Below are positions 12,001 through 48,852 of a stretch of DNA of 64,000 nucleotides, piece by piece (position 1 is the stretch's first letter; each line of letters starts with the position of its first letter). Origin of the DNA: a virus. Position numbers and translations under genes: made by a program. The stretch is from positions 7,211 to 71,210 of the IMG/VR virus record IMGVR_UViG_3300046538_000109. The stretch is one strand, 5' to 3'. The notes under the pieces were generated by a model that was given only the letters and a program-made list of their open reading frames with translations, was not told the origin of the DNA and made no database searches.

Positions 12001-15000
12001 TCCCTGAGATCGCCGATGTCCAATACAACTTCGCCAACAACCGCTTCGAGCGCGTTTCACCCGTTCGCTCATCTGCCGACGAGTTACTGGCTGACGAATC
12101 CGCTGCGGGAGAACACGCTGCTGGCGCGCGGACTGGATCCGGCGACGCTCGAGGCGCTGTCGGACGAGGATCTGACGGCGCAAATGAAGGCGATGGGCAG
12201 CTCGGCCGAGTGGATGCAGTTGCTTTCACAGACACGGATTTTAAAGCTGTTGCACAATCGGTTCGAGACGCTTATGACGCTCTCTTTCCATCCCGTCGAG
12301 GAGCGTTTACGCCTCCGCTTGGCGTGTCTGATCTTAAGAGAGCGGCGCTTGTCGGTACCGTTTTACGCGAAGAGGGATCAGGAGCAGGGCGAGCGACACT
12401 GGATCACGTTTCAAACCGGCTGCTACAACGAGTAAGCCCGCAGCTCGACTCCGTTCTCTACAGCCGTGACGCGGAATACTTCCGCGATGACGGCAATTTC
12501 CTTCCTGCGATGCCTGCCGGCGTCGACGTCGGCGCCGCCGCGCCGCTCGAACTGAGCGGCCGCGAACTGCTGGACGCCAAGAAATCGACCGAGCAGCTGA
12601 ACCGCCAGCTGGCGAAGGCCGGCATGGAGCCGGTGCGCGCGCTGCGCGTGGCGCCGAACGCGAATTTCGCGCTGGCCCGCCAAATTGGCGAAGCGCTGGG
12701 CATCACGGTCAATTTCGTCAGTCGGAACCCGGAGTTCGAGGGCGTGGCGTACGATGGCATTGCCTACCTGGCTGACGGCATGCGCAACGCCGAGCTGGCG
12801 ATCGCCGGCCACGAGACGCTGCACGCGCTCGAGCAGGGCAACCCGGAGCTGGGCGCCAAGTTGCGCACCCAGATCCGCGCCTACCTCAAGGATGGCGTGG
12901 TCGAGGATCGCCAGGCGCGCGAGTATGCGGCAAACGGGCTGCAGGACGTCTCGGTCGAGCAGGCCGAGGCCGAAGTGATCGCCGATATCAATGGCGCGAT
13001 GTGGATGGATCCGGTGTTCTGGGCGGATCTGGCGAAGGCTGATCGCTCGCTGTTCCGCTCCGTGGCCTACAAATTCATGGAAGTGGCCGCCAAGGCCATC
13101 AAGAGCCTGCGCGGTTCGCGCTTTGACGTGAGCGCCCTGGTGCGCGACGTGGAAGCGGTGCGCGCGATCATGGTGGCCACCTGGGCCGAGCATGGCGCCA
13201 GCCGCGATGCCGCCGAACAGGCCAAACCGGCCGTGTTCAGCACGTCGAACCTGTCAGTCCCATTGCTTTTGCAGGATCGACTCACCGACACGGCGATAGC
13301 CGAAGAAGTGGAGAAACGCATCGGCCAGTTTGCGCACCAGCCCGCGATCCGGATCCGTGACAGCGCGGTTGGGGAACTCCCCGACGCGACAAGCGATGAC
13401 CGGGTGGCCGGGGCGGTCCACGATGGCGCCATCTACCTGTTCCGTGACCAGCTGCCCACCCGGATGGCGGTCCAGCGGACCCTGTTTCACGAGTTGTTCC
13501 ATTACGGGCTCCGACGTTTCCTGACAAAAGACGAGTATATCACCCACATGCTGGACCTCGCCGGGCGTGACGCCGACGTGGACCGGGATGCGCGCCGCTG
13601 GGCGGAAACCCCGGACGGGCGCCGCGCGGCGGCCTATGGTGGCGAAGACTATGCGCACGCCCGCGGCGTCGACGAGCTGCTCGCACAGATCGCCGAAACC
13701 AATGCAGGCGTCTTCCTCGACCAGTCGGTGCAGGCGCGCGTGCTGCGCACCGTGCAGGGCTGGCTGGCCAGCCTGGCACAGGCCTTCGGCATGAAGGCGA
13801 CGGCTGCTTACTTGCGCGGCATGAAAAGCGACGAGGCACGCTCCACGATTCGCTCGATGTTCGCCAAGCTGGAGCAAGACGCGCCGGCGTCGGTCGAGCC
13901 GTGGGGCCCCGCAGCCGACACGGCGTTCCGCCGCGACGGCGTCACGGCAACTCCCGCCTTCAAGGCGTGGTTCGGCGACAGCAAGGTGGTCGACGCCGAC
14001 GGCAAGCCGCTGGTGGTCTATCACGGCACCAACAAGGATATTTCCAAGTTCAAGGGCTCGCATATCTGGGTAACGGATGAGGCGGAACTGGCCAATGAAT
14101 TTGTGGCCGGCGGCCGCAGAAAGATGGGGGATAAGCCCGGGCGCGGCTCGGCCGTCTACCCGGTCTATGCGGCAATACAAAATCCCGTTGATCTGCGTGG
14201 ACTGGATCTGGCATCGGACGTCACCGTGCCGGAAATTCTCAAGCGCGCGGGCATTGCGCCCACCGACGCCATTCTGGAGAAGATTGCCCGGGAAAGCTTG
14301 GACAGTGGCTATGCCGGTGTTTCCGCAAGCCTTGGCGACCCGGTTCAATACCTCGTTGAAAAATACAAGGCCGGCAGTCGCTTGTCGAACCTGTTGGATA
14401 ACCCAGCGTTGAAGTCCGCGCTGGAAGCCGGCGGAATTGATGGCATCCACCTGACGGAGAAATATACCAAGGGCACGCGCAAGGCCCCAATATCGGCCCA
14501 GGCCGATACATATGCCGCCTTCCATCCGGCGCAGATCAAATCGGCCACCGGCAACAATGGCGAATTCGACCCCGGCAATGCCGGCATCGCCTTCAGCCGC
14601 GCCGGCCTGGGCGAGACGCTGGCCAGCGCCGCCAACAACGTCGCGGCGCTGCGCCTGCCGGCCGGTTACCTGGTGGGCGACCTGTTCAACCAGTCCGGCA
14701 AACTGAGCTGGTGGCACAAGACCATCGGCACCATGGAAAACCTGGCCAAGCGCCGGCCGGCGTTCGCCCGCGTCTACGCCGCGGTGCAGAGCTTCCTCGG
14801 CGACGTGTCGCGCTATGCGGTCCAGTCGGCGGATCTGGCGCCAACCCTGCTGCCAAAACTGGAAGACATCGCCGATATCATCGGCAAGAACCGCAAGAAG
14901 CCGCTGACCGGCGAGGATACCAAGGCGATCGGCGGGCCGATCTTCGAGGGCACGCTGGTATGGGCGCGTGACGCCAATGACGAGCCTGTCAAGATCGCCG

Positions 15001-17540
15001 AACTGGAAACTTGGGCCGATACGTTGACGGCCGGACAGAAAGCGCAGATCCTGCTGCAGAAAGGGATCATCGACGATGCGCAGCACCGCTCCTGGCTGAA
15101 CAGTCCGCTCAACCTCTACGAGGCGACCATCAACGTCCGGTTCAAAGCGACCCAGCTCAAGGCCGGCGTGGTGTGGTCCGATGCCGAACTGCGCCGCCTG
15201 TTCAACCTGAACGACGCGCAGATCGGGCTGTACCGCGAATTCCGCGCCGCGATCGACAAGAGCCTGACCAGCCTGACGATCAGTGAAATGATCAAGTTGG
15301 GCGGCAAGGACGCCAAGAGCATGCTGGATCAGGCGATGGCGGCGCCGGATCTGGCGTCGGCCGCTGAACTTCTGCGCGACCACTTCATCGAACTGGCGCG
15401 CATGGATCCGGAAAGGACGGATATGCACCTCGATACCGCCAAGCAGATTATGAATCTGGCGGACAAGGGGGAAGACCTGATGGACCGGGGTTATGCGCCG
15501 CTGTCACGCTTCGGCAAATACACGGTGTACGTGCAGGACGTAAATGAGGATGGGGAGGCCGAGCAGGTCTATTTCGGCATGTTTGAAACCCAGCACGAGG
15601 CCTCACGGATGGCGCGCCAGATGGCGGCCGAGCACCCGCAGGCGCAGGTTTCGCACGGCACCGTGTCCGAGGACGCCTACAAGCTGTTCGCCGGCGTGTC
15701 GCCGGAAACGATCGAGCTCTTCGGCTCCATGGTCGGACTGGACAGCCAGGCGGACCCCGCTACCAGCGAGGTCTACCAGGCGTATCTGAAACTGGCGAAG
15801 AACAATCGAAGCGCGATGAAGCGCATGATTCAGCGCAAGGGCATCGCCGGTTTCTCGGAGGACGCGGGCCGCGTGCTGGCCGGATTCATCTACAGCAATG
15901 CCCGCCTCACGGCCGGCAACGCGCACCTGGGCGAGATCGATGAGGCGATCACCGAGATCCCGAAACAGCAGGGCGAACTGACGGACGCCGCGATGCAGCT
16001 GCGCGAGCACATCCGCAATCCGGAGGGCGGCGGCAGCAAGTTGGGCGGCCTGATGTTCGCGCAGTTCCTGGGCGGATCGGTCGCCTCGGCCATGGTCAAC
16101 TTGACGCAGCCGTTTACCATGACGCTGCCTTACCTGAGCCAATGGGGCGGGCTGGCGAAAGCCGGCACGCGCCTGGGCGCCGCCATCAAGGACGCCGGCA
16201 AGAAGGAAACCGGCGATGCCGGCCTCGATGCCGCGCTGCGGTGGGCATCCGACGAGGGCATCGTGGCGCCGCAGGAGGTGCACTACCTGCAGGCGCAGGC
16301 GGCCGGCAAGGGCTCGCTGCAGTCGGGCGACGGCACGCCAGCCGGCAACGCGCGCGCGCACCTGAACAACGCCATGACCAAGGTGTCGCTGGGCTGGGGC
16401 AAGTTGTTCGCCATGGCCGAGCTGGCCAACCGTCGCGTGACGTTCATCGCGGCCTACCGCACGGCCGTGGCCGAGGGCATCGCCAACCCGGCGGAATTCG
16501 CCCGCGAGGCGGTGTCGCAGACTCAGGGCACCTACAACTCAGGCAACAAACCGAAGTGGGCGCGCGGCGCGATCGGTGGACTTTTATTGACCTTCAAGCA
16601 GTATTCGGTCGGCTACCTCGAGCTGCTATCGCGCATGGCCTTCGCCGGCGAGCCGGGTTCGCCAGAGCGGGCGGCCGGCCGCCGCGCCGCGCTGTACATG
16701 CTCGCGGTCCTGGTGCTGATGTCGGGCGCCGACGGCCTGCCGTTCGAGCAGGATCTGGAGGACGCGATCGACGGACTGATGCAGCGTTTGGGCTACAACT
16801 TCTCGAGCAAGCGCAAGAAGCAGGAAATTCTGACCGACGTGCTGGGCCAGGGCGGCGCCGACTTCGCGCTCAAGGGGATCTCGAGCATGCCGGGTATGCC
16901 GGTCGACGTCGCCGGCCGCTTTGGCATGGGCAACCTGCTGCCGGGCACCGGCCTGCTGACCAAGAAGGCGTCGTACACGTCGGATCTGGGCGAGCTGGCC
17001 GGGCCTGCGGGCGATTTGGTCAAGCGCGCATTCCTCGCCAGCGGCAAGGCGCTGGGCGGCGACCTGGCCGGCGCCGCGCTCGATATCTCCCCGGCATCCG
17101 TGCGCAATGTGGCCAAGGGCGCCGATATGCTGGCCACCGGCGCCTACCACGACGCGCGCGGCTACAAGGTCAACGACACGACCGGCCTGGAAGGCATAAT
17201 GAAGATCGTCGGCTTCCAGCCCAACAGCACGTCCAACATTCAGGATGCCAAGGGGCAGGCGCTGGACATGATCCAGCAGAACCGCTTGCGCTCGTCGGAG
17301 ATCACCGAGCACTGGGCGCAGGGGCTGGCCAACGGCGACACGGCGATGGTCGCAGAAGCCCGGGAGCAGCGCGACGACTGGAACAAGAAGAACCCGGACA
17401 CCCCGATCCGGGTCAACATGCCGGCCGTGATCCAGCGCGTACGCGCGATGAAACAGGACGCGATCAACCGGACGCAGAAGACCGCGCCGGCGGCACTGAA
17501 GGCATCGGTGCGTAACGAGCTGGCGGAGGTTCGGGGATAA
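12..17540 (+). CDS. Giant multidomain 'polyvalent' protein, DarB-like antirestriction/virion-injected type; >5842 aa, frame open upstream of window so N-terminus missing
   Basis: Single frame without stop for 17.5 kb; host-like high GC3 over the checked segments (N-terminal coil, C5-MTase); recognisable motifs in order (see findings): FtsK-gamma-like wHTH (~1020-1175), PPase-like DxDxID (~1320-1660), C5-MTase (3445-4050), N6-MTase (6480-7260), SNF2 helicase (8760-10560), two HExxH (12809-12823, 13488-13502), YHGT ART-like (14020-14031), hydrophobic C-term (~15950-17000). The track's GTG at 12 is not the true start. Confidence 0.7.
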   Translation: MQAAATAQAAASAPAAAASAPAAAQSALPSIAQIDARMAELVAIGQGSLASSTTDAAGNKVKVPGVPGRRLTHEEITEYNSLEAARRQRAAIPADQQAEFTALLAAEEAENNKKFEPAKLAAEQARAEAEARRAAAEEAQQQAAQKARDDAEHAQIASMVNADEQLRQQTAKVRQQQDLDDIATRVARDNAARAEVNRAGLRDDVLADDSIPADGKKSAFAAALKREGYRSTELTEADHHEIDAATAPVPSLPNELVDAVPERKASAPAAAPGAPNTDAVDAAIAAGMRLKTANGAVLHKPGSSKIFKLSTAQRAHYLERMATPAAAPAPAAPNVAEADDALYAEAEAFVRTTNDASAAKLQQQFKIGYNRAQRLLEKMHAAGLVSPMTSAGARTVTAPAPADAQPSAAAQAFDAAAQQAATSPQNDLPEPTAAQKEAGNYKVGRAKLHGLDLSIENPAGSTRKGVDKSGTPWETTMQHHYGYIRGTVGADKDHIDTFIGKNLDSDKVFVVDQIHPDSGKFDEHKVMLGFNSLEEARAAYQANYDANWTGGRAITETTVDGFKSWLASGKTKKPFAAPRNSAAAPTAPAAAAAPSAPQLTKIELNKMTVKDMTNDQLLQAKEVFKGQSREPKIDREIAARDIAPAADRIVADELVVPKQAAPDARERARTLADLAANAGHAVDIDGHFKPGVYGTAEQPLKFVSGMTAPGDFTRLFSNGKNVGISMLELSKVSVPRIAEQLAKAEGAHLFVDSGAFSIHMSNVREKEAAERELREVAEAAKLDHAALFDRYEDLSRAISVASDGTANGRALFVMPDIVGDQAGSLALVQRYASEINSYGASAIVPLQGGELTLTQAYEQMMRHLGMDPAGDISPLIGIPSQAEAVSNDEFTDLLRKHGDRIHGVHILGALSDQRLQPRLNAMIAAGYDFNVSADANRVRSLTSKSRPRKEAVKAVLNSDTADGAPMPRVVRDDQRPEPAEPVSALKQRARAAETVEPNEPAQLGVHANATAPEHVVLGVDDRELGQVVEEFNDAQAEMMQGAHAISNIFQPPTKREVVRLEDKARATGKLWDKKEVQAYNKNLAAREVLEKENQPIPAELAKVIADFEAVYLPHAARLEKEAKAEIGKWKNHAQAQGDDPATRRANGRKIVLSLFDLSGEWSRPWEEAGYQVYRFDIQDDPTVGDVNNFSSEFFGDWFGDFDGLDIHAVLAATPCTDFAVSGARHFAAKDKDGRTVSSVKLVHQTLRVIEYFKPSVWAIENPVGRIEKLGGLPPWRLSFDPNHLGDSYTKKTLLWGRFNADLPVAPVEPTEGSKMHRLYGGKSMATKNARSETPKGFSYGFFMANNVADHPAMALANKFDRLDRALIEQAMAAGVTEEQITEAVEDYYYMDQDDDAANAAVRDLIAEAAPDPEPAPTKPKARQEPAKKKGTKQASAPQPAPATAMAAAKSGQDFGQKARDVVNMLPQITTFEQVATAENLLFDLAYEMERAKDQLAPQVRAAADSVRVFKMINTGDKSYAREGEGVRRTLENVLEQHPPAAKVEENAPAKVNLGSAATGSVLNAEDGTLYRIEGIDIGANKIRTTRNPDMGSERVVLMDQGRYDRLAAEDASVREASVKAADSVRKTTPAAQPAADLTGLDQRIAEVEQHLATTRQSQKDAEKNGNAWTWDKKVAEWEKTLAAYQEARERLLNPPPPSQFAGNKLFTSDAVEKARARMKSKLSQLNSGMDPELMMDGITIAGAYIESGVRSFAAFSKAMVGDLGEAVRPYLRSFYEGVRHYPGLDAAGMNSSAEIDAMEQANTAPHTQASPIKNDAIGETVKAKPSRAKAPADTLLRDDWGVSHIDGYAELPGGANEQTDYGLRGGLKDAFLKDAQNYLRKVSLELQAQGFVPYTADNGKPLKVVSVNESGTAGSGDISLYAYHPEKQHGIYLHIGDTAIRGMVPTTKSGIALMMRVGHTGDRTGTQDHNRWMPVNLSAVDLAEQAAKAVHAAALARSRVAQSPTINHTETIPAPVAEPKEQNNDSTPAASAPAIDSPVAEGQRPAGSHAVTRGAEQPRAGAGRDDARSVRERGGRDQVADDAREDLGDRPGDDAVPDRAPDAVAGHSKSVSADFRPDLGGLTREGSWFDTAKRNIDLIELALKIESEGRPATAAEQAQLAKYVGFGASAIRNKLFPIPPSYAKQQDPNRLIWPSLIGEASWRALAERMEALPAAWQRSVLQSSQYAHYTSEGIIRSAWSAMQRLGFTGGKVFEPGMGIGSFSMLMPDAVRKTSRYTGVEFDGPTALIARLLSPEQNMLHDDFIKRKFPKDYFDVAIGNPPFSQTQIFADPDYEKHGFMLHDFFFAKSIDRVRPGGLLAFVTSKGTMDKQTDKARKYLAARADLVGAIRLPSTAFEDNAGTSVVTDVIFLRKRLEDEAPAGAAWANVATVDTKDGPVVINEYFAKHPEMVLGQNRISGGADDMGRRINSNGRGAAQYTVVSYDQTPAELDAKFAAAVERLPQNVYSVLGQSTESVQRETAKVDFDPSVKREGVVYQAKDGAIMRVEHGVGVPLASGMKMTESDKAWFASYIGLRDLVNEARLAQATDGKWESSLKKLNKAYDAFRKEHGPINDFRVQVRKSTDEDGKEVETESRIFKNRRRFREDYDAAILTQLETINEAGDIVKSAFLQGRTIGKPITREIKTVGDALAVSLDETGRLNLADVGRRIGLNREETIEALGNQVFQAPAGDWQLADEYLSGDVVSKLEEAEQAARLDESLYRNVEALKAVQPEKLGPSQISAKLGASWIPEAHVNEFAGEIDAGAVTFDPKTETWQVDGGNLRSQRRAGAEYGTAARSPSELLESALNSRSVKILHGKGAGELAGKTDQEATTAANEMLKKIKDKFKGWVWTDAERASELVESYNRRYNNIAPRRFDGSHLTLPGVSLRYTLHPHQKNGIWRQVQTGDTYLAHAVGAGKTIEMIAGGMEQKRLGLIKKPMYVVPNHMLEQFSNEFMELYPLANIMVADDENFSAERRKAFIANATLNNPDAVIITHDAFQRIGVKEESVAPIRDEILADLEIELSETAKDNGARVRRSQLEQQIEAVTQRFDRIISAGGKDSTLKFEDIGVDFIFADEAHVFRKLDFHTSQQIKGIDPNGSKRALDMYVKTRWLQQQRPGRAMVFASGTPVTNTMGELYTIMRFFAPKEMDRAGISTFDAWARQFGEVAPALEPNAAGKYELIERFAKFDNVPELMSRVRQFMDVLTSEHLGALVKRPDLIGGKPNLNIVQPSAALEHYMKTVLGPRIEISKKWKPTKDEPSNPDPIVSIITDGRFAAIDPRFFGGELGEEGSIITEMGDKVAAAYHAGKNNVYQDKNGKDEPIKGSTQIVFYNMGFGEQSQKNRGFNARAAFTKRLTDGGIPRDQIAWFDDANTDAKKEAVFKDMRSGKLRVLIGSAKKMGTGVNVQKRLAVLHYQDPPWFPADVEQPHGRIIRQGNQNGEVAIEWYTTKGTYQSTMWQMVGRKQRFIDQAFSGDKSLRSMEDMGEASLFEQAAAVASGDPRAIQLAGLKQEVERFERLQAAHASEQINVRSALRSAEWQVESAQKRIVSYGAAFKAIGERFYSFTSGKVGNRLFDKIGEFGQAIKDAFNEVAADAVLGGPVQDRQIATLDTLPITVDSEFDKTGKNPSGELSLYVNVGSQALHISTAPAFGADVDAVGLGRRMVNSVNGISSDLSRAKSDLASGQTDLVRLRKKQGAPFEYQQEMAEKYGDLKRLEEELRLEGLAKDEPALPIVINADGSSTEDSAASAGEQGQELAFSRARIDSDDPLVNIFSKIAQDDAAFRLPTSTGKTLSAVMADMAGLSVNEFYGAGVEEDPKMPVDRVWEVSAPSGEHAWVYRNNKNKEIWLDISNWKEGKLGAEVYQAVATFAKNTGHTFIGDPQGLSDKALYRRTEHMISSALRHGTTEHLAPHSRQREDIATATGTPMRPIQWREGDHGHNLREMLVSSYTNILQVFPEIADVQYNFANNRFERVSPVRSSADELLADESAAGEHAAGARTGSGDARGAVGRGSDGANEGDGQLGRVDAVAFTDTDFKAVAQSVRDAYDALFPSRRGAFTPPLGVSDLKRAALVGTVLREEGSGAGRATLDHVSNRLLQRVSPQLDSVLYSRDAEYFRDDGNFLPAMPAGVDVGAAAPLELSGRELLDAKKSTEQLNRQLAKAGMEPVRALRVAPNANFALARQIGEALGITVNFVSRNPEFEGVAYDGIAYLADGMRNAELAIAGHETLHALEQGNPELGAKLRTQIRAYLKDGVVEDRQAREYAANGLQDVSVEQAEAEVIADINGAMWMDPVFWADLAKADRSLFRSVAYKFMEVAAKAIKSLRGSRFDVSALVRDVEAVRAIMVATWAEHGASRDAAEQAKPAVFSTSNLSVPLLLQDRLTDTAIAEEVEKRIGQFAHQPAIRIRDSAVGELPDATSDDRVAGAVHDGAIYLFRDQLPTRMAVQRTLFHELFHYGLRRFLTKDEYITHMLDLAGRDADVDRDARRWAETPDGRRAAAYGGEDYAHARGVDELLAQIAETNAGVFLDQSVQARVLRTVQGWLASLAQAFGMKATAAYLRGMKSDEARSTIRSMFAKLEQDAPASVEPWGPAADTAFRRDGVTATPAFKAWFGDSKVVDADGKPLVVYHGTNKDISKFKGSHIWVTDEAELANEFVAGGRRKMGDKPGRGSAVYPVYAAIQNPVDLRGLDLASDVTVPEILKRAGIAPTDAILEKIARESLDSGYAGVSASLGDPVQYLVEKYKAGSRLSNLLDNPALKSALEAGGIDGIHLTEKYTKGTRKAPISAQADTYAAFHPAQIKSATGNNGEFDPGNAGIAFSRAGLGETLASAANNVAALRLPAGYLVGDLFNQSGKLSWWHKTIGTMENLAKRRPAFARVYAAVQSFLGDVSRYAVQSADLAPTLLPKLEDIADIIGKNRKKPLTGEDTKAIGGPIFEGTLVWARDANDEPVKIAELETWADTLTAGQKAQILLQKGIIDDAQHRSWLNSPLNLYEATINVRFKATQLKAGVVWSDAELRRLFNLNDAQIGLYREFRAAIDKSLTSLTISEMIKLGGKDAKSMLDQAMAAPDLASAAELLRDHFIELARMDPERTDMHLDTAKQIMNLADKGEDLMDRGYAPLSRFGKYTVYVQDVNEDGEAEQVYFGMFETQHEASRMARQMAAEHPQAQVSHGTVSEDAYKLFAGVSPETIELFGSMVGLDSQADPATSEVYQAYLKLAKNNRSAMKRMIQRKGIAGFSEDAGRVLAGFIYSNARLTAGNAHLGEIDEAITEIPKQQGELTDAAMQLREHIRNPEGGGSKLGGLMFAQFLGGSVASAMVNLTQPFTMTLPYLSQWGGLAKAGTRLGAAIKDAGKKETGDAGLDAALRWASDEGIVAPQEVHYLQAQAAGKGSLQSGDGTPAGNARAHLNNAMTKVSLGWGKLFAMAELANRRVTFIAAYRTAVAEGIANPAEFAREAVSQTQGTYNSGNKPKWARGAIGGLLLTFKQYSVGYLELLSRMAFAGEPGSPERAAGRRAALYMLAVLVLMSGADGLPFEQDLEDAIDGLMQRLGYNFSSKRKKQEILTDVLGQGGADFALKGISSMPGMPVDVAGRFGMGNLLPGTGLLTKKASYTSDLGELAGPAGDLVKRAFLASGKALGGDLAGAALDISPASVRNVAKGADMLATGAYHDARGYKVNDTTGLEGIMKIVGFQPNSTSNIQDAKGQALDMIQQNRLRSSEITEHWAQGLANGDTAMVAEAREQRDDWNKKNPDTPIRVNMPAVIQRVRAMKQDAINRTQKTAPAALKASVRNELAEVRG
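6082..6378 (+). CDS. 98-aa acidic hypothetical protein encoded in an alternative frame inside the giant ORF's low-complexity linker
   Basis: Perfect SD GAAGGAG (6068-6074) 7 nt before ATG 6082; GC3 ~85% in this frame vs ~45% in the giant frame over the same 297 nt; translation is well-composed (MIPPLQQVRLRSIRRWLKDNDQQAATLSLEALNSRALELDETMLEAFESGEDEIKSQMMREKTWGTDQGMTRFPTERLTLWQDIASQFLPTSALISED) whereas the giant frame reads Ala/Gly/Arg/Asp/Pro low-complexity here; preceded by a short AT-richer stretch (6020-6081). Confidence 0.4.
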   Translation: MIPPLQQVRLRSIRRWLKDNDQQAATLSLEALNSRALELDETMLEAFESGEDEIKSQMMREKTWGTDQGMTRFPTERLTLWQDIASQFLPTSALISED

Positions 17541-21373: not shown

Positions 21374-22441
21374 ATGGGTCGAGAGTCGGCAATTACATAT
21401 GAACAAGTGGTGGCAGCGGCGGACGCGATGAAGGCGGGCGGGCTGCGGCCGACGTCCCGCGCGATCCGGGAGCGACTGGGCAATACGGGGAGCATGGGCA
21501 CCATCAACAGGATGCTGGGGGAGTGGAAAGTGGGCCAGGAGCACGCGATCACGAGTGCCCTCGTATTGCCGTCCGGGATCCAGCGCGCCATCCTCGAATT
21601 CATGGGTCAGGAACTGTCAGCAGCGAAGGCGGCGCTTGAAGCCGACTTGGCCGAGCAGCATCAAGAGGTGGCCGATCTCGCCACCGAAAACGAGCGGCAG
21701 GCCTCGGAGATCGATGGCCACATCGCCGCTGTCACGGCGCTGCAGGTGGAACTGGCGATGCTGCAGGGGCGCGCTACCCAGGTAGATCTCGACTGCCATG
21801 CCGCGCAGGCCGAGGCCGAGCGGGAGCGCCAGGCGGCCGAGAGCGCGCGTACCGAACTGGCGAAAGCGATGTTGCGCCTGGAATCCATGCCGCGCCTCGA
21901 GGCCGATCTCGGGACGGTGCGCGCTGCGCTGGAGTCTGAGCAGCGCGCCCGCGTGGCCGCAGAGCAGAGCGCGGCCGTGCTCGCGGCGCAGCTGGTGGGC
22001 TGCAATGACCGTGGCGCCGAGCTCCAGAACCGCGAAGCCAAGGGGCTGGCGCACGCCGCCGAGCTGGAGCATCAGCTGCAGGCGGCGACGGCCGATGCCG
22101 GCAAGGCCCGCGCCGCGGCGCAGACGGTCGAGCAGCAAGCAGCGGTATTGGCGGCAAAACTGGAGGCCAGCGACCAGCGCGGCGCCGAAATCGAAGCGCG
22201 GGAGCAGGCGGCAATCGCGCGCTGTGGCGAGCTCGAGCGCCAGATCCAGGGGTTGACGCGAGAAGTCGGCACGGCCAACGTGGCGGTGCAGGCCAGCCAG
22301 GCGCGACTGGAAAGCGCCGCCCGGGAACTGGATGGGGCGAGAGAGCAAATGCGCACGGCGCGGGAGGACTCCAAGCGGGCCGGCGAAGAGGCGGCCGAGC
22401 TGCGCGGGCAGCTGGACGCGCGCGGCAAGGACAAGCAGTAA
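21374..22441 (+). CDS. kfrA: KfrA-like DNA-binding protein (N-terminal KfrA_N wHTH + long Ala/Glu/Gln-rich coiled coil)
   Basis: N-terminus MGRESAITYEQVVAAADAMKAGGLRPTSRAIRERLGNTGSMGTINRMLGEWK closely parallels the RK2 KfrA N-terminal domain; remainder is a ~300 aa alanine-rich coiled coil as in KfrA. Confidence 0.7.
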   Translation: MGRESAITYEQVVAAADAMKAGGLRPTSRAIRERLGNTGSMGTINRMLGEWKVGQEHAITSALVLPSGIQRAILEFMGQELSAAKAALEADLAEQHQEVADLATENERQASEIDGHIAAVTALQVELAMLQGRATQVDLDCHAAQAEAERERQAAESARTELAKAMLRLESMPRLEADLGTVRAALESEQRARVAAEQSAAVLAAQLVGCNDRGAELQNREAKGLAHAAELEHQLQAATADAGKARAAAQTVEQQAAVLAAKLEASDQRGAEIEAREQAAIARCGELERQIQGLTREVGTANVAVQASQARLESAARELDGAREQMRTAREDSKRAGEEAAELRGQLDARGKDKQ

Positions 22442-22726: not shown

Positions 22727-22763
22727 GTGAATGCGTGATTATTGCCCATAATCACGCATTCAC
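22727..22763. repeat. Perfect 16-bp inverted repeat GTGAATGCGTGATTAT-tgccc-ATAATCACGCATTCAC
   Basis: Read directly (arms 22727-22742 and 22748-22763, 5-bp spacer); no downstream T-run so not a canonical terminator; lies between kfrA and the recombinase gene. Confidence 0.55.
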
Positions 22764-22827: not shown

Positions 22828-23145
22828 ATGCACACTCTGCAAATCAGCATCCCCGAAGACCTTGATTTCTCCGCCCTGAAATTAAGCCGCCACCTTGAAA
22901 GCGGCGACATCGAATTCGACTGGGCACCCGTCGACGCCATCTGCGCCGCCTCCGGCATCGACCCGGATGTCTTCCGGCAGACCGCCGAGGACAACCTGGC
23001 CAGCTTGATCTCAACGTGGTACCACATGCACCGCGAACTGGGCGGCGCCGCCGACCCGGTGGCCGAGCAGATCACCGCCGAGATCGAGGCCGAAGCGATC
23101 GCCGGTATCGCCGGTGTTCAGGAGGCGTCGGGCCGCCTGCAATAG
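22828..23145 (+). CDS. Hypothetical protein (~105 aa)
   Basis: ORF; start assigned to internal ATG at 22828 downstream of the inverted repeat. Confidence 0.35.
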   Translation: MHTLQISIPEDLDFSALKLSRHLESGDIEFDWAPVDAICAASGIDPDVFRQTAEDNLASLISTWYHMHRELGGAADPVAEQITAEIEAEAIAGIAGVQEASGRLQ

Positions 23146-23152
23146 CGGTCCG

Positions 23153-24304
23153 ATGGACAGCAACCAGTCGCGCCCGCCAGCGCGATTCCAGCCGGCCACC
23201 GCGCTGGCCAGCCCTCCCCTACTCCCTGGCGCGCTCACGCACGCCGACACTGACGCGCGCCTGGTGCGACTATGGCTGCAACGCCCCAACCTCTCCCCGC
23301 GCACCATCCGCGCCGCCGACAAGGAGGCGCACCGTTTCCTGCTCTGGTGCGGCGCACACGGTCTGCAGCTGCGCACCGTCTACTACGAGCACCTGCTGGC
23401 CTACGCCAACTTCATCAGCCAGCCCGAACCAGCCGACCAATGGATCGCGGCGGCGAAGTACCCGCGCACCGATCAGCGCTGGCGTCCCTTCCTTGGCCCG
23501 CTGTCCGAACCGTCGCAGCGGCAAACGCTGGTGATCCTGAAAGGATTGTTCGGCTGGGCGCGCGCAGCCGAGTACCTGGCCCACAATCCGGCCAAGCTGC
23601 TGGGTAACCTGGCGCTGTCGGGCGAGGAAACCGTGTCGCGCTTCCTGCCCTCCCCAGCCATCCCGTTGCTGCTGGCGGCCGTCGAGCAGCTGCCGTGCGA
23701 TCGTCCAGGCGAAGCGATCCGCAAGGCCCGCGCCCGCTTCATCATCCTGGCCTACTACCATTCCGCCGCTAGGCTGAACGAGCTGGTGCAGGCGGACATG
23801 CGCAGCATCGCGCGCGAGCGCGACGGCCGCTGGTGGCTGCACGTTCTGGGGAAAGGAAAGAAGAAGGGCAAGGTACCGGTGACGGATCAGCTGCTGGCGG
23901 AGTATCAACGCTACCGTGAAGCGCTTGGTTTGAGTGCCCTGCCCCGGCACGATGAATCATTGCCGCTGCTACTGGCGTCACGCGGGCCACAACGCCGGGC
24001 CAGCCACTACACGATTGCCCGCGCAATCAAGCTCGTCATGAAAAGCGCCGGCGCGCTGGCCAGCGCCGATGGCAACCCCGAACTCGCGCGGCGGATTGAG
24101 CAAGCCTCCACGCACTGGTTGCGGCATTCCTCGCTCACGCACCAGCTCGACGCCGGGATGCCGCTGACCACCGTGCAGCGGAACGGCCGCCACGCGCACA
24201 TCAAAACCACGGGGCGTTACCTGCATAAAGAGGATGATGCTCGCCACAACGAAACGCAGGACGCTTGGGTGAAACTTTACACAGAGGGCGATTATTCAAA
24301 TTGA
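23153..24304 (+). CDS. Tyrosine site-specific recombinase / integrase
   Basis: C-terminal catalytic signature ...HWLRHSSLTHQ...HIKTTGRYLH (R-H-R-Y family); N-terminal SAM-like core-binding region; stop codon lies inside a palindromic repeat. Confidence 0.8.
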   Translation: MDSNQSRPPARFQPATALASPPLLPGALTHADTDARLVRLWLQRPNLSPRTIRAADKEAHRFLLWCGAHGLQLRTVYYEHLLAYANFISQPEPADQWIAAAKYPRTDQRWRPFLGPLSEPSQRQTLVILKGLFGWARAAEYLAHNPAKLLGNLALSGEETVSRFLPSPAIPLLLAAVEQLPCDRPGEAIRKARARFIILAYYHSAARLNELVQADMRSIARERDGRWWLHVLGKGKKKGKVPVTDQLLAEYQRYREALGLSALPRHDESLPLLLASRGPQRRASHYTIARAIKLVMKSAGALASADGNPELARRIEQASTHWLRHSSLTHQLDAGMPLTTVQRNGRHAHIKTTGRYLHKEDDARHNETQDAWVKLYTEGDYSN

Positions 24305-24327
24305 ATAATTCGTAAGTCATTGATTTT
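24288..24327. repeat. 40-bp direct repeat copy 1 containing 9-1-9 palindrome ATTATTCAA-a-TTGAATAAT then TCGTAAGTCATTGATTTT
   Basis: Read directly; near-identical copy at 25887-25926; overlaps recombinase stop codon (24302-24304). Confidence 0.6.
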
Positions 24328-24452
24328 TAATGGCGTGATGGCGGAATATCCGCTGACGCACTTCGTTTGTCGCCCGTCGAATTTGCTTCGCAAATCAAGC
24401 AGCGCTGTCGCGCTGTCGAAGCCGGGGCGGTTTCTTGGGGTTGCTCGTAAGA

Positions 24453-25645
24453 TCATCCATCATGAATATTCGGCATTCTGGCTATCGCAGCGAAAGAGGG
24501 CAGGATCTTTGCCTCTGGCTCAACAAATGACAAGGCCCCAGTTACCTGATGTGCAGCATACTTAACATCGCGGTTTGCGGCCGGTGGTGGCGCCAGGCTG
24601 ATGGTCGGAGGGGGAGTGGAGGCAACGACATGCTTATATTTGGCTATGGTCTGCCTGGCTAGACCAGTGGCACGTCCGATAGCTGCTTGAGTCAGTGTCT
24701 CGCCGCGCGCCTGCAATAAGCGACATGCGGCGCGGATCTTCGCTTCCGTGACAGATTGGCGCTCTTGGTGCGTGCGGGTCGCGGCGCGCTTTTGGCGCTC
24801 GGCCAGCGGCAACTCGGCGTCAAGCTGCATCACGCCGCGGTTTGCGCGACGAGAGCCGGTGTAATGCTCCCATGTCCACCTGGCGACCGATTTCACCGTC
24901 GCGCGGACTGATGACAGCGCCAGATTCGCGGCGAATCCGAGATGCAGGAACTGATTCTTGCTGTGCGCATAGGCGTCCACCATGCGTGTGAAGGAGGCGA
25001 GGGTGCCGCTGGCACGTTCGCGGCCCACAATCGAGTAGGCGTAGTGACGAAGGTACTCGAACAGCGTACAGTGGCGGGAATGCGCAACCTCATCCAGCTG
25101 GACGCCTTTGCTCCAAGGGCTTGTCGTTACCAGATCCACGTAGTCGGCCAGATCGCCCAGTTCATAGACGGTGCTGTGCAGTTCGTGCGTCAGCCACCAT
25201 GGATGGCCCGGGGTCTTGGCCACCGGCCCCGAATGATATTCCGGGTCGGCTGACAGCTTGGCGGCGAATGCCTCATAGACCGCCTTCATATAGGCGATCG
25301 GCCCGCCACGAGCTGCTGCCGTCGTGCACACTGGCGTGATGGCATAGTAAAGATGGCTGTGCCCGTTCTTTCGGTTGCGCACGATCAGATTCGGCGCCGG
25401 CAGACCGGCGTCCTCCCAGCGCCAAGCGTCCGCGTGGTCGAGGTCAAAAATCAACCAGCTCACAAAGCCCGGGCGGTTTATCTGCATATACGGGTAACGT
25501 ATCGCGTACTCACGTGGTCTAATTCGCGTCGCCGTCTTATCGTCGCTGCAGCGAGGCAGGTAAGGCGCTTCCCGCAGAATGCGGTTAAGCGCCGTTCCCG
25601 CCTGGAAGAAGCGAACCTCTTCCGATTTTGGAACGTGCATAGCCA
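24453..25645 (-). CDS. Putative plasmid/phage replication initiator (Replicase/primase-like N-terminus, C-terminal HTH)
   Basis: N-terminal region (LIVRNRKNGHSHLYYAIT...) recalled as resembling the plasmid 'Replicase' primase-type Rep family; C-terminal HTH LTQAAIGRATGLARQTIAKY; sits between partition genes and recombinase, flanked by palindromic direct repeats. Start set to the Met of MAMHVPK. Confidence 0.5.
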
Positions 25646-25683
25646 TCCTTGCCCCTGGAGGGGGTAAAGTTATTGACAGCCAT

Positions 25684-25741
25684 ACCAAGGGGGACTAAGA
25701 TGAAGTTTCTCAGGCCTCGGGGTCTTTGGTCCCCCTTGGTA
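25684..25741. promoter_or_regulatory. 13-bp perfect inverted repeat TACCAAGGGGGAC ... GTCCCCCTTGGTA (32-bp spacer) in the rep promoter region
   Basis: Read directly; 40-95 bp upstream of the rep start. Confidence 0.4.
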
Positions 25742-25757
25742 CAGCATCTAATTGTTT

Positions 25758-25790
25758 AAAAACGCCTCGATCGCCAAATCGGGGCGTTTT
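25758..25790 (-). terminator. Intrinsic terminator for the parAB operon (minus strand)
   Basis: Stem AAAACGCC/GGCGTTTT with 15-nt loop; on the minus-strand transcript followed by UUUUUAAA. Confidence 0.45.
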
Positions 25791-25886
25791 GCTTTCTAGG
25801 GTGGGTTTCAGTGGCCCATATTCATCCTCGTAGAAATGACAAAAACCCAGCCGAAGCCGGGTTTTCAATTAATAGTTGTTCCTCAC

Positions 25887-25926
25887 GCGATTATTCAATT
25901 TGAATAATTCGTAAGTCATTGATTTT
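25887..25926. repeat. 40-bp direct repeat copy 2 containing 9-1-9 palindrome ATTATTCAA-t-TTGAATAAT; 8 bp downstream of parB stop (candidate parS)
   Basis: Read directly; differs from copy 1 only at the central base of the palindrome. Confidence 0.6.
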
Positions 25927-25933
25927 ATTGAAA

Positions 25934-26869
25934 TCAACTATTGCTCTCCTGCTGAATTAACGTCCGCAGGAACGATTCTATTTTGTCGCGATGCGCTTCG
26001 AGATCCAAATTGCGGTCTGCCAAGCGAATAGTAATATCGCGCTTCTTCACTATTGTAACGTATGCAGTATTGCCGGAAGAGTTTGAAATGATGCGATTGG
26101 GCACATCTTTTTTTTCGTCGTTCAGCCTGGAAATCTGCTGAGCCACCCAGGCCTTCAAGCCATTTTGATCGGCGCCTTCTTTGAATCGCTTGACGCCCTC
26201 CACGATTGTCGCCGTATGTTCTGGGTGGGCCTTCCACAGCGCTTGGATATTGGCGGCGGCGGACACGCCAAACAGGCCGGGATCATCATCCAGCAGCGCA
26301 AGAATAGGCGAGGGCAGTTCCAGCATCGACAGGCACTTGGACACGAAGCCCTGAGACTTGCCGACTTGTACTGCCAGCTCGGACTGGGTATTCGCCAGCT
26401 TCTCATCCAGTCGGCGGCGGAAGCTGCAGCCGTACTCGTAGTCGTGCGGCGGAGTGCCGGTGTTATCGATCAGGACAGCGGCAGCGGCTTCCTTGTTGGA
26501 CAGGGCGACAATCAGCACGCGCGCCTCTTCCCATCCAATGCTCAGGGCCGAGTACTTGCGGGTATGCCCTTTGACAACTTCTGCGCGCCCTGGTGTGACA
26601 ATCCGCACCTCGATGGGGTCAACCTGGCGCGTGGCCAGCATGGACTGGCCAATGGCATCTACGCGCAGTGGATCAATCTTGAGGCGCGTCTGGTAGGGGC
26701 TATCATCCAGTAGGTCCAGGCGCATCATCATTTCGGTGCCCGGGACCGGGGCTGTTGGGCCGCTCGGCGCATCCTGTGGCGCGAATGCCGCAGATGGAGT
26801 GATGCCGGTGGCCGGCACGACACGCCCGGATTGGATTAATCCGGATACCTTGAATCCTGGCTTGCTCAC
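25934..26869 (-). CDS. parB: ParB-family partition protein
   Basis: 311 aa; ParB/Srx-like N-terminal region and central HTH (ELAVQVGKSQGFVSKCLSML); translationally coupled to the upstream parA (ATGA-type overlap 26866-26869). Confidence 0.75.
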   Translation of the reverse strand: MSKPGFKVSGLIQSGRVVPATGITPSAAFAPQDAPSGPTAPVPGTEMMMRLDLLDDSPYQTRLKIDPLRVDAIGQSMLATRQVDPIEVRIVTPGRAEVVKGHTRKYSALSIGWEEARVLIVALSNKEAAAAVLIDNTGTPPHDYEYGCSFRRRLDEKLANTQSELAVQVGKSQGFVSKCLSMLELPSPILALLDDDPGLFGVSAAANIQALWKAHPEHTATIVEGVKRFKEGADQNGLKAWVAQQISRLNDEKKDVPNRIISNSSGNTAYVTIVKKRDITIRLADRNLDLEAHRDKIESFLRTLIQQESNS

Positions 26870-28089
26870 GCGGCTTCCTCCAGCTGGGCGGCCGGGCCGG
26901 CGCCGGCCAGGCGAATACTGTAGAGGCGAGTGAGGGACTTGGTCAGGTCGATAATGTCGCGTGCACCGCCGCTATTGGGCTCCTTTTCCAACACCGGACC
27001 ATTGGTATGGATGCTATCCGGGTCGGTTTCGCGCAAGAAGCCGACGAAGTCGCGCACGATGGTGTCATTAATCTTGTCCGGATACTTCGCCAGTAACTTG
27101 GAGAGGGAGAAATTGTGCGGTTTTTTCGTCTGGTTGTACTGATTCACGACGATATGCACGTCCAAGTTGATGCCCTGGCGGTTGAAGGCGGCATTGATCT
27201 CCTGCACGTTCGACGCCAGCACGTCCAGAGCTGCGATTGCTTGGCCCTCCGGCGATACCACGGTCAGTAGCGTTTTGCTGGCCACCATGAACGTGGTGGA
27301 GAGTAGGGAGGCGCCCGGAGCCGAGTCGATGACGATCACATCATATTTGCTAAAGAATTCCTGTTCCTGCTCCAGCAGGCGCTGGAATGCGAATTCACGG
27401 TTCATGATTCCCATCAACCAAGTGTCATCCACCATCGTGATATCGCTGGGGATCAGGTCGAGCATGCCCCCAGGGTAGACCGAGCGCACCGCTTGCTCAG
27501 GATTGGCAGGCTCGTTGCGTGCTGCGCGCTGCATCAACTTGGACACGTGGGTGATCTCTTCTTCCAGCCAGTTGATGCCGAACAGGGAGGTCAACGATGC
27601 CTGTGGGTCGCCGTCAATCAGCAGCACTTTGTAGCCGGACAGGGCAAGGCAACTGGCAACATTGCCCGTGATGGTCGTCTTTCCGACGCCGCCCTTGGCC
27701 ATGCGCGTATCAATGATCGGGGGAAGGTTGCGCGGTCGCGTGGCATCTTGAGGGATGCCCAGTAGATCCATGCGGATATGCCGAATTTCTTGCGCCGAAT
27801 ACAGCTTGTGTGAGTTATCGGTCGAGTCGCGGTAGCGAGCGCGGAACGTCTTGGGCGTGCCCGTGAAGCCGGTCAACTCCATGGCGAGTTTCGCCTTCAC
27901 CCCATCAAAAGATCGCATAATTTGCCTTGGTTCAAAAATAATGTTGCCTATCATATCTTTCTCAAGGGTTCTTTTCAATACGGTTTTTGAAAAATAAAGG
28001 GGAATCTGCAAAAAAAGGGCGTTGCTACGATTGCTTGGTCGCCATGGCGTGTACGTCGATGGCTTCTCGGAGGTCGGCATGCCAGTCAT
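26866..28089 (-). CDS. parA: ParA partition ATPase, type Ia (long N-terminal extension)
   Basis: Deviant Walker A MAKGGVGKTT preceded by ~120-aa N-terminal extension as in P1 ParA/F SopA; 407 aa. Confidence 0.85.
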   Translation of the reverse strand: MTGMPTSEKPSTYTPWRPSNRSNALFLQIPLYFSKTVLKRTLEKDMIGNIIFEPRQIMRSFDGVKAKLAMELTGFTGTPKTFRARYRDSTDNSHKLYSAQEIRHIRMDLLGIPQDATRPRNLPPIIDTRMAKGGVGKTTITGNVASCLALSGYKVLLIDGDPQASLTSLFGINWLEEEITHVSKLMQRAARNEPANPEQAVRSVYPGGMLDLIPSDITMVDDTWLMGIMNREFAFQRLLEQEQEFFSKYDVIVIDSAPGASLLSTTFMVASKTLLTVVSPEGQAIAALDVLASNVQEINAAFNRQGINLDVHIVVNQYNQTKKPHNFSLSKLLAKYPDKINDTIVRDFVGFLRETDPDSIHTNGPVLEKEPNSGGARDIIDLTKSLTRLYSIRLAGAGPAAQLEEAA

Positions 28090-28200
28090 CGCTGCCTAGA
28101 ATCCTATAGGCAGTTGCTCCATCGGCCGTGCCTCGCAGGAAGCCACCTGCAGTTGCAAGGTGGTCCAGCCGTTGCGCATCCGTCAGCTCGGGGATGGCAG

Positions 28201-36421: not shown

Positions 36422-37486
36422 ATGACCTGTACCGTTTTCCTCGTCGGCAGCAAGTATCACTACCGATTCCGCCTGGCGCCGCTGCCCCGGATCCAGCGCA
36501 GCACGCGCGACACTGACAAGCGCCGCGCCCAGCGGATCGCCAATCTGGCCTACGCCGCCGCGCTGGTGCGGGTCAACGGCGGCCACATAATGCCCACGCT
36601 CGATGAGCTGATCGACCAGTGGTTCGAGATCCGTGGCCCGGTGGCCAGCGCCTCGCACCGGCGCGGCGTCGACACCTTCAAGCGCAAGCACCTGTACGGC
36701 ATGGGCGCGCTGCCGATCGACCAGCTGCACACCAAGGTGGTGGAGATCGCCCGCAACAAGCATCTGGCCACGCGCAAGCCGGCGTCGGGCAATCACTGGC
36801 TGCGGATACTCAATCTGCTGGTCAACTGGGCCGTCAAGGGCAAGATCCTCACCGAACGGCCGTGGGATGTGGACATGCTGCCGGAGCAGAAGTCGCCGCG
36901 CCAAATCCTTCCCATCAGCCTGACCGACGCATGGTTTGACGCGATCGACGCGGCCAGTCGGCGCCGCCCGTCGGTGGCGATCGCCGTGCGCCTGATGTAC
37001 GGACTGGGCTTGCGCGAGTCGGAAGCGGCCACCGCGCGCTGGGAATGGATCGACTGGGAGCGCCGCACGTACACGCCCGGCATCACCAAGGGCAAGGAAG
37101 CGGTGCCGATCCGGATGCCTGGCTGGCTGGCCGGCTACCTGCACGAGCGCCGCCAGAAGGATGGACCGATCACGCCCGGGCGCAACGGCCAGCTGCCCGA
37201 GGGTTACGCGCGCCACGCCATGCGGCAAGCCAACCTGGCGACGTCGCTGACCGGCATCACGCCGCACCGACTGCGCGGCACCTGCGCGACGCTGCTGTCT
37301 GAGGAAGGAACGCCCGTCCAGACCATCCAGGCCATCATGCGCCACAAGGACGCCACGACCACCATGCGCTATCTGGAAATCAACATGGACACCGCCGGCG
37401 CAGCGCAGGACCGCATCGAAAGCAAGGTCCGCTTCGGTGGGCGAAAACTGGGCGCAGACCTGCCAACGGAGGCTACGGGCAAATGA
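36422..37486 (+). CDS. Second tyrosine integrase (phage integrase family)
   Basis: N-terminal arm-binding-like GSKYHYRFR; C-terminal HRLRGTCATLL...HKDATTTMRYL (R...HxxR...Y). Confidence 0.8.
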   Translation: MTCTVFLVGSKYHYRFRLAPLPRIQRSTRDTDKRRAQRIANLAYAAALVRVNGGHIMPTLDELIDQWFEIRGPVASASHRRGVDTFKRKHLYGMGALPIDQLHTKVVEIARNKHLATRKPASGNHWLRILNLLVNWAVKGKILTERPWDVDMLPEQKSPRQILPISLTDAWFDAIDAASRRRPSVAIAVRLMYGLGLRESEAATARWEWIDWERRTYTPGITKGKEAVPIRMPGWLAGYLHERRQKDGPITPGRNGQLPEGYARHAMRQANLATSLTGITPHRLRGTCATLLSEEGTPVQTIQAIMRHKDATTTMRYLEINMDTAGAAQDRIESKVRFGGRKLGADLPTEATGK

Positions 37487-37790
37487 AGACGCGGACAAAT
37501 CATAATCATCGGTGTCAATTCAGCCGGCCGCCTTGCCACAACGGCAACTGCCCGGTTGCGCCGCCGGTTGCAGAGGTTGCGCGCGACCCGAAATGCAACC
37601 GCGCGGGCACCGTCCCGCAAATTGTTCCACGGCCAGCAAGTGCGGGGAAATGCCGCACGCCGATTCATGGAAATCACAAGCGTTATCAATCACTTAGCCG
37701 ATCAGAACCAGACGCGGCCGAGCAGCTGCGCGCGGCGTCCGGACATCGGCAAATCGGCCAAAAATCGGGCCTGTCGGAAGACCTCAGAAA

Positions 37791-45908: not shown

Positions 45909-45984
45909 TGTCATGTAGCTCAGTTGGTAGAGCGCCGGACTGTTAATCCGGTGGTCGCTGGTTCGATCCCAGCCTTGACAGCCA
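45909..45984 (+). tRNA. tRNA-Asn (anticodon GTT), 76 nt with encoded CCA
   Basis: Cloverleaf folded by hand: acceptor TGTCATG/CTTGACA (one T:T mismatch at 6:67), D-arm GCTC-AGTTGGTA-GAGC, anticodon arm CCGGA-CTGTTAA-TCCGG, T-arm GCTGG-TTCGATC-CCAGC, discriminator G, CCA. Confidence 0.8.
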
Positions 45985-46096: not shown

Positions 46097-46357
46097 ATGA
46101 AAGCCAGAATCACCATCAAGCCCTCGTCCCTCCCGATGGGGTCGCCAATCGGCATCATCATCCTGTTCGGCCTGCTGCTGGATCGCCTTGCCGCGCCTAG
46201 CTGGGTATGGGGCGTGGCGGGCATATTCGCTGTCCTTCTGGTGATCGAGTTCTTCCGTCAGCGCGCGTGGGGCGTCGAGCACGACGTTCCCGGCTTCGGG
46301 GATGCGAGCCCGGCGTACGCCACACCTGATCCGGACTTTCCACCGCCGCCGCTTTAA
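46097..46357 (+). CDS. Small hypothetical membrane protein (86 aa)
   Basis: Hydrophobic segments IGIIILFGLLL and VWGVAGIFAVLLVI. Confidence 0.35.
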   Translation: MKARITIKPSSLPMGSPIGIIILFGLLLDRLAAPSWVWGVAGIFAVLLVIEFFRQRAWGVEHDVPGFGDASPAYATPDPDFPPPPL

Positions 46358-48803: not shown

Positions 48804-48827
48804 CGCGCGGCGCACCATCAACAACAA

Positions 48828-48852
48828 GCCATCCCCCGGGGTGGCTTTTTTT
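48828..48852 (+). terminator. Hairpin + T7 run between terL and portal (partial terminator/attenuator)
   Basis: GCCATCCCCC-GGGGTGGC then TTTTTTT, immediately followed by ATGAGCAACCAC. Confidence 0.45.

Follow-up and report, generated by a model that had tools for sequence, protein, structure and literature searches.

Paired palindrome and IHF-type repeats around the replication initiator gene of a phage-plasmid are probable parS centromeres

The 64,000-nt stretch analyzed here (positions 7,211 to 71,210 of the IMG/VR virus record IMGVR_UViG_3300046538_000109; hereafter, the window) carries a replication initiator gene, rep, bracketed by two 40-nt direct repeats, with the partition genes parB and parA beyond one repeat and a tyrosine recombinase gene (Int) beyond the other. 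What function do these repeats serve? An initial annotation offered two answers, either a split centromere (parS) or a pair of directly repeated recombination sites able to excise or amplify the rep cassette. It also called for a comparison with related elements, and the ~15 related par loci that we compared favor the centromere. The two repeats are most probably parS sites of the ParA/ParB partition system of a phage-plasmid. A centromere is an ordinary kind of element; this one belongs to a previously uncharacterized ParB clade and has a mildly distinctive composite architecture.

The repeats lie at positions 24288-24327 (copy 1) and 25887-25926 (copy 2), and both read GCGATTATTCAA[A/T]TTGAATAATTCGTAAGTCATTGATTTT. 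As the initial annotation had described, they differ by a single base (39 of 40 positions identical), A at 24300 versus T at 25899, which is the center of a perfect, AT-rich 9-1-9 palindrome of 19 bp, ATTATTCAA-N-TTGAATAAT (Table 1). Its account of their surroundings also held. Copy 1 spans the final five codons of the recombinase gene together with its TGA stop codon (24302-24304), copy 2 ends 7 nt short of the parB stop codon (25934-25936, minus strand) and thus starts at the eighth base past it, and Pfam domains confirmed the order recombinase, site, rep, site, parB-parA. The ends of the repeats are sharp, and the sequence outside the 40 nt is unrelated between the copies. No further copy of the palindrome or of the 18-nt right half was found within the window at up to three mismatches, apart from an IHF-like, 3-mismatch match at 46355 that is unrelated to the repeats, and 0 of 100 dinucleotide-preserving shuffles of the window gave a match to the repeat parts. 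We refer to copy 2 as putative parS-A and to copy 1 as putative parS-B.

The right-hand 18 nt of the repeat, TCGTAAGTCATTGATTTT, read AATCAATGACTTA on the opposite strand and fit the consensus of integration host factor (IHF), WATCAANNNNTTR, exactly. This consensus occurs six times in the window versus 0.42 expected. Because the right half is an exact match, each repeat is a composite of a palindrome and a predicted IHF-type site. Each site also contains a weak sigma-70-like match (ATGACT-18-AATAAT, 9/12; 25919-25890 and 24320-24291, minus strand), in which the -10 element is a palindrome arm. We judged this match incidental, since the parS-A copy would fire straight into the terminator at 25867-25840; if it were real, ParB would repress it. 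The palindrome was also considered as a hairpin or terminator, which was ruled out by its AT-richness, its 1-nt loop, the lack of a T tract, and the proper terminator nearby.

Megablast of positions 23000-28200 against plasmid and phage collections gave no match, so the locus has no annotated close relative. Relatives were therefore traced through their proteins. ParB homologues with 33-47% identity (95% in L010) were found on plasmids of Janthinobacterium, Massilia, and Undibacterium (Oxalobacteraceae) and on metagenomic contigs, several of them 76-80 kb long; a profile search of genome contigs with the ParB alignment gave at least six loci. A relative that is 90% identical to the window (L008/L010) is a 76.8-kb IMG/VR viral contig. 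Locus L014 was left out, as its sequence stops 41 bp past parB. Seven elements, representing at least five lineages, have a PF03090-type rep bracketed by sites: the window, L010, L020, L022, L023, L025, and L027. Nucleotide searches added little. When both site regions were compared with 72,556 plasmids by distant-mode blastn, all matches were weak and unrelated, including ~100 matches to Acinetobacter baumannii plasmids (E = 0.07) that lie beside UDG and NUMOD4 genes without par context and that we attribute to chance in AT-rich DNA. In an exact-palindrome scan of IMG/VR, the true relative was L008/L010; L007 and L009 were rejected as AT-rich contigs without ParA, ParB, Rep, or Int. L018, from a metagenome scan for the palindrome plus CGC, was an unrelated 1.2-kb contig.

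A palindrome of the same family lies 0-36 bp past the parB stop codon, in the same orientation as copy 2, in all 15 loci with downstream sequence, except Massilia L016, where the first palindrome is 151 bp past the stop. The placement and orientation of parS-A are matched in L001, L003, L010-L013, and L020-L027. The spacing to the IHF module is equally regular: 27 sites of 15 loci have an exact WATCAANNNNTTR whose end is 13 bp from the dyad, and when palindromes were located independently of IHF, 19 of 19 carried the consensus at this offset. The number of site copies per element ranges from 1 to 8, with variable orientation. All four bases occur at the center of the palindrome across sites, as expected if the center is the dyad of a dimer site.

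The core of the palindrome is not constant. There are eight core variants among the lineages, with one core per element, common to all of its copies. The half-sites are ATTATTCAA (window and L010), ATTATTCAC (L025 and L026), ATTATTC[C/G]C (L022 and L027), TATTCCA (L003, L020, and L023), ATTATTCTA (Undibacterium L004, L005, and L015), AATATTACC (L021), TATTACT (Janthinobacterium L001, L011-L013, and L024), and GTTTAGA (Massilia L006 and L016). Among 14 homologues, the recognition helix of ParB (SQGxVSK motif) co-varies with this core. SQG-F-VSK accompanies the inner bases AA, SQG-T-VSK accompanies AC and [C/G]C, SQG-N/K/S-VSK accompanies CA, and SQA-V-VSK accompanies TA; SQAKVSN is found with TATTAC-type cores and NLSKVNG with the GTTTAGA core. 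ParB is also the fastest-changing protein of the module, with 39-47% identity to the window protein, compared with 68-77% for ParA (34% in the exceptional L023), 59-65% for Rep, and 55-60% for Int. Such fast divergence is expected where a centromere and the specificity of its binding protein diverge together.

Gene order varies around these constants. The order parA-parB-site-rep(PF03090)-site-Int recurs in L010, L020 (which has two post-rep sites), L022, L025, and L027, and L023 has the same order as far as the post-rep site; no homologue of the window's Int was detected at the L023 locus. Site-rep-site thus occurs in at least five PF03090 lineages, the window included. Clusters of sites bracket an unclassified post-parB gene ("gene X") in Massilia, with two or three copies on one side and four or five on the other, and in Undibacterium, with one copy and then two or three. 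A bracket is dispensable: both sites of L003 lie between parB and gene X, and L021 has a single site. In Janthinobacterium, a Rep_3 gene lies on the opposite side of parAB, and extra sites occur 3-4 kb downstream in either orientation.

Across the sequences compared, the sites follow ParB and not the recombinase. L003 and L021 encode Int homologues (59% identical) that no site adjoins, their sites lying only beside parB, and the five Janthinobacterium-type loci (L001, L011-L013, and L024) have sites without an Int homologue within 5-8 kb.

The sites are also old. L010 keeps both in place, with 3 of 80 site positions changed versus 14 of 70 immediately flanking positions. Between the window and L010, parS-A differs at 1 of 40 positions, its adjoining 10-20 nt being 70-85% identical, and parS-B differs at 2 of 40, with flanks 75-85% identical. 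Read in the sense of parB, the center bases are alike in both elements, A at the post-parB site and T at the post-rep site. A difference that both elements have must be older than their split, so the repeat did not arise by recent duplication. Within L010, the two copies match at ~37 of 40 positions and are diverging independently, so selection on all 40 bp of the unit, and not recent conversion, accounts for their near-identity. By these comparisons, the sites are under purifying selection. Neither the age of the center-base difference nor the IHF module TCGTAAGTCATTGATTTT at its fixed 13-bp offset had been recognized in the initial annotation.

Taken together, a site adjoins the parAB operon, a palindrome occurs beside a cognate ParB with ParB_N and helix-turn-helix domains and a ParA ATPase, and the site sequence tracks the ParB recognition helix, with one specificity per element. 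The centromere proposed in the initial annotation is strongly supported, at the level of sequence comparison, by the conserved place after parB, the co-variation with the ParB helix, the 1 to 8 copies, and the sites found without a recombinase. A ParB helix-turn-helix dimer would bind the 19-bp palindrome, with one monomer per 9-bp arm and the center base uncontacted. IHF, bound 13 bp from the dyad, would introduce a bend and so aid assembly of the partition complex, as at P1 parS, and ParA would then position plasmid-prophage copies. With one site at the 3' end of parB and the other past rep and the probable origin, the complex would form around the replication module, on the earliest-replicated DNA. 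Chromosomal parS sites likewise cluster around oriC. ParB binding, IHF binding, and a benefit from bracketing rep are each predicted from the sequence.

Several points weigh against this assignment. The IHF consensus is absent from the sites of Undibacterium and of Massilia L006 and L016, so it is not universal in the family, and the consensus used is that of E. coli, the host here being placed only as probably a member of the Burkholderiales. In six PF03090 elements, from four of the five lineages, Int ends at the post-rep site, and tyrosine recombinase att sites also typically pair a core with a neighboring IHF site. Lastly, the two cores of an element are reverse complements of each other in four of five lineages (see below), which a parS model does not predict.

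ParB-bound centromeres may in addition regulate replication. ParB spreading or bridging over the 1.6-kb bracket could modulate rep, the antisense RNA-like module in its leader, or origin firing; we consider this role unlikely. Because the parAB terminator, the antisense promoter and terminator module, rep, and the 18-nt motif ATTTGCGAAGCAAATTCG, a candidate origin, all lie between the sites, these enclose the entire replication module, and the bracket recurs in the PF03090 lineages and, as clusters, in Massilia and Undibacterium. There is also a precedent in Vibrio cholerae chromosome II, the replication of which is controlled by ParB2 through spreading from parS and binding within the origin (PMC3688505). 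The family can nonetheless do without a bracket, as L003 and L021 lack the second, bracketing site and the rep of Janthinobacterium lies beyond parAB.

The relation between the two cores raises a further question. Once sites are aligned by their IHF motifs, the core past rep is, in four of the five PF03090 lineages, the reverse complement of that past parB, while the IHF modules stay direct. The window and L010 have center A versus T, L020 has C versus G (its third site has C), L023 has G versus C, and in L022 and L027 three asymmetric positions are flipped (CCCCGCG versus CGCGGGG). The relation fails in L025 (G and G) and in the non-bracket lineages L003, L012, and L001. If these were independent 1-in-4 events, four of five lineages would give p ~0.016, although the lineages are not fully independent. 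That the two cores carry a second activity, beyond serving as redundant ParB sites, seems distinctly unlikely. The abutting tyrosine recombinase might, for example, recombine or convert the cores in inverted alignment, or the two parS sites might delimit a replicon cassette that is swappable between elements. Non-homologous initiators fill the same slot in relatives, and the window Rep is 70% identical to the Rep proteins of pHS87a and of small Pseudomonas, Comamonas, and Xanthomonas plasmids versus 59-65% identical to those of sister elements. The locus hints at initiator exchange within a fixed leader. The first codons of the window rep (ATGCACGTYCC, encoding MHVP) match those that open gene X of Undibacterium, an unrelated gene. 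The post-parB initiators of Massilia and Undibacterium were tried as homologues of the window Rep by BLASTP and Pfam, with negative results. An invertible segment, as the inverted cores might suggest, was ruled out by the constant orientation of rep in the seven PF03090 elements.

The other answer given by the initial annotation was that the repeats are targets of the adjacent tyrosine recombinase, with a res-, att-, or dif-like core and an IHF site, serving multimer resolution or the excision, amplification, or inversion of rep. Copy 1 does overlap the Int stop codon, and the post-rep site abuts the 3' end of Int in L010, L020, L022, L025, and L027. IHF sites accompany many tyrosine recombinase sites, a core made of ATTATT arms and a 7-bp overlap that varies between lineages is a possible reading, and in four of five lineages one core is the exact inverted repeat of the other. 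Against these points stand the failure of sites to track Int, the copy number of up to 8, and the co-variation of the core with the ParB helix. The arms of the palindrome are separated by 1 bp instead of a 6- to 8-bp asymmetric spacer; a forced 6-7-6 reading is possible, and the resulting overlap is symmetric except for its center base. Deletion between the direct repeats would release rep on a circle lacking par and leave a large circle lacking rep, and the intact arrangement and common orientation of rep in all seven PF03090 elements argue against frequent inversion or excision. The overlap of copy 1 with the Int stop codon is apparently tight packing, the C-terminal tail of Int being equal in length to that of L003, where no site adjoins. 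Finally, a perfect 16-5-16 inverted repeat at 22727-22763 (GTGAATGCGTGATTAT-N5-ATAATCACGCATTCAC) is a more canonical candidate for an Int site. Excision or amplification of rep from direct-repeat recombination sites is therefore unsupported, and recombinase targets of any of these kinds are very improbable.

Two further readings are weaker still. That the repeats are Rep-binding elements of the origin (iterons or ori boxes) of a PF03090 replicon is extremely unlikely. They flank rep, and IHF sites are common at plasmid origins, but such sequences are absent from plasmids like pHS87a, whose Rep is 70% identical, homologous sites lie beside parB in elements with unrelated initiators (Rep_3, gene X), and ATTTGCGAAGCAAATTCG downstream of rep is a better candidate for ori. 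A functionless scar, whether attL/attR or a duplication from insertion of the rep cassette, is hardly credible, for although the sharp repeat boundaries, the closeness of the window Rep to Xanthomonas and Comamonas plasmid Reps, and the non-homologous initiators in the same slot would suit it, both copies predate the separation from L010 and have changed less than the flanking sequence, diverged lineages have equivalent site pairs with cores of their own, the recombinase lies outside the bracket, and no empty, single-site version of the PF03090 arrangement was found among the relatives compared.

The genes and features around the putative parS sites are listed in Table 1.

Table 1. Predicted genes and sequence features at the par/rep locus of the window
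Feature	Positions	Strand	Remarks
KfrA-like protein	21374-22441	+	Gene content of the region
Tyrosine recombinase (Int), Xer/integrase-like, 383-396 amino acids	23114/23153-24304	+	Phage_integrase; weak XerC/XerD; convergent with rep
parS-B (putative)	24288-24327	-	3' of rep and the candidate ori; palindrome 24291-24309, center A 24300
parS-B IHF consensus	24313-24325	-	Within copy 1
Motif ATTTGCGAAGCAAATTCG, candidate ori/Rep target	24378-24395	-	58-75 nt 3' of rep, inside the bracket; 18 nt
rep, replication initiator	24453-25646	-	Replicase PF03090 and PriCT_1, E = 4e-47; between the two sites
Antisense (countertranscript) RNA-like module, rep leader	25673-25795	+	Promoter TTGACA-17-TAAGAT 25673-25701, then bidirectional hairpin terminator
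parAB intrinsic terminator	25840-25867	-	12-bp stem, then T tract; immediately past parS-A; conserved in L010
parS-A (putative)	25887-25926	-	Directly 3' of parB; palindrome ATTATTCAA-T-TTGAATAAT 25890-25908, plus-strand reading
parS-A IHF consensus AATCAATGACTTA	25912-25924	-	Motif end 13 bp from dyad 25899
parB, 311 amino acids, presumed palindrome binder	25934-26869	-	ParB_N, HTH_ParB, weak SopB_HTH; TIGR00180 parB_part, PRK13698
parA, Walker-type partition ATPase, open reading frame of 407 amino acids	26866-28089	-	AAA_31, CbiA, ParA families; likely start gives ~350 amino acids (26866-27918), as in the gene call on the source contig

The promoter of the antisense-like module faces away from rep and is the top promoter-like match of the region (10/12). 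A motif CTGAGAAC..CATCTTA..GTCAA together with the terminator is conserved upstream of the post-parB gene in L003, L004, L006, L015, and L016, and the module precedes non-homologous initiator genes in different plasmids. The module had no Rfam match, and a search of Rfam over 24000-26200 at a permissive E-value gave only sub-threshold noise. The motif ATTTGCGAAGCAAATTCG occurs exactly at the equivalent place in L010, L020, and L023, and L022, L025, and L027 carry another conserved block (GCCCCCGGCAGGGCGGG...) there; it is a plausible candidate origin for the PF03090 Rep. The 16-5-16 inverted repeat at 22727-22763 lies upstream of the operon of a small open reading frame and Int and adjoins a promoter-like TTGCCA-17-TAGAAT. 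L010 has conserved this repeat, which may serve as an operator or be what Int really targets. In several relatives, LuxR-type genes (Autoind_bind and/or DUF4902, with GerE) are found a few kilobases upstream of parA (L020, 86-1249; L021, 1-477; L022, 1994-2626; L026, 1187-1846; L003, 3195-4331), which suggests that quorum-sensing-type regulators are part of the backbone of these plasmids and phage-plasmids.

The assignment of the window to a phage-plasmid in the initial annotation was upheld, because virion genes are present in the window and the 90%-identical relative is itself a viral contig. The structural module (46418-64000) encodes TerL (47271-48803), an SU10-type portal (48841-51216), the major head protein (52774-53751), a tail fiber (57373-58593), and an internal virion protein (61044-62669). 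The closest capsids, those of Pseudomonas phage Rollin and Xanthomonas phage DES1, are only ~40% identical. No sequenced phage had a close ParB, and no P1-like phage was among the ParB matches; the element therefore appears to represent an unsampled phage-plasmid lineage. A giant open reading frame (12-17540, plus strand; at least 5,842 amino acids) runs past the left end of the window and encodes a polyvalent protein with InPase, FtsK_gamma, N6 DNA methylase/Eco57I, LPD37, and ART-PolyVal domains. A second tyrosine integrase of 354 amino acids is encoded at 36422-37486 (plus strand), with an IHF consensus ~200 bp downstream (37684-37696), and the element may be able to integrate as well. A tRNA-Asn gene lies at 45909-45984 and another IHF consensus at 46357-46369.

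The repeats thus provide a concrete candidate centromere for an uncharacterized ParB clade of Oxalobacteraceae plasmids and ~76-80 kb contigs, two of which, the window and the relative from IMG/VR, are genomes of phages or predicted phages. In this phage-plasmid lineage, they would mark the incompatibility determinant as well as the partition/replication module. The eight natural variants of core and recognition helix, together with the conserved bracket around rep, offer material for studying partition specificity, and the variants could show how incompatibility groups for partition come to diverge. A centromere beside parB is what a specialist would expect, and current understanding is not overturned. 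The combination of a simple palindrome with an IHF site at a fixed 13 bp would be an architecture intermediate between P1 parS and chromosomal-type parS.

Comparison with known systems places the putative sites as follows. P1 parS lies immediately downstream of parB, and IHF raises the affinity of ParB for it (PMC10999674, PMC3258138); heptamer box A and hexamer box B motifs occur on both sides of its IHF site (PMC10999674). Like P1 and P7 parS (type Ia), the site described here is directly 3' of parB, contains an integral IHF site, and belongs to a phage kept as a plasmid, and as in P1, it is accompanied by a large ParA and a helix-turn-helix ParB with a ParB_N domain. Unlike P1 parS, it has a single perfect 19-bp palindrome on one side of the IHF site, only an A/T tract being conserved on the other; there are two sites instead of one, and the ParB is only distantly related to that of P1. 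The parS sites of Burkholderiales secondary replicons (Bsr) and chromosomes are even palindromes of 16 bp that center on CG and lack an IHF site, and a small number of discriminating bases separates closely related systems (PMC5450999). The sites of the window resemble these in being perfect palindromes suited to a helix-turn-helix ParB dimer, in occurring as several copies near a replication origin, and in being told apart by few bases, and they differ in their AT-rich, odd 9-1-9 palindrome, their free center base, and their fixed IHF module.

Two plasmid systems share other traits. The KorB operators (OB) of IncP plasmids are 6-1-6 palindromes, TTTAGC-S-GCTAAA, bound by a ParB-family protein at several places in the replicon. 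They are likewise odd-centered, and the Massilia core GTTTAGA-W-TCTAAAC resembles OB; in contrast to KorB, the window ParB had no detectable KorB Pfam domain, and the sites number only two, both at the par/rep module. The repABC cassettes of alpha-proteobacterial plasmids combine a partition ATPase, a ParB-like protein, an antisense RNA, and an initiator, with palindromic parS within or beside them. The gene order of the window, including an antisense RNA-like module before the initiator, is similar, and its ParA weakly matches TIGR03453 (partition_RepA), but the scores fall far under the family cut-offs, the initiator is of the PF03090/PriCT_1 type and not RepC, and a terminator separates parB from rep.

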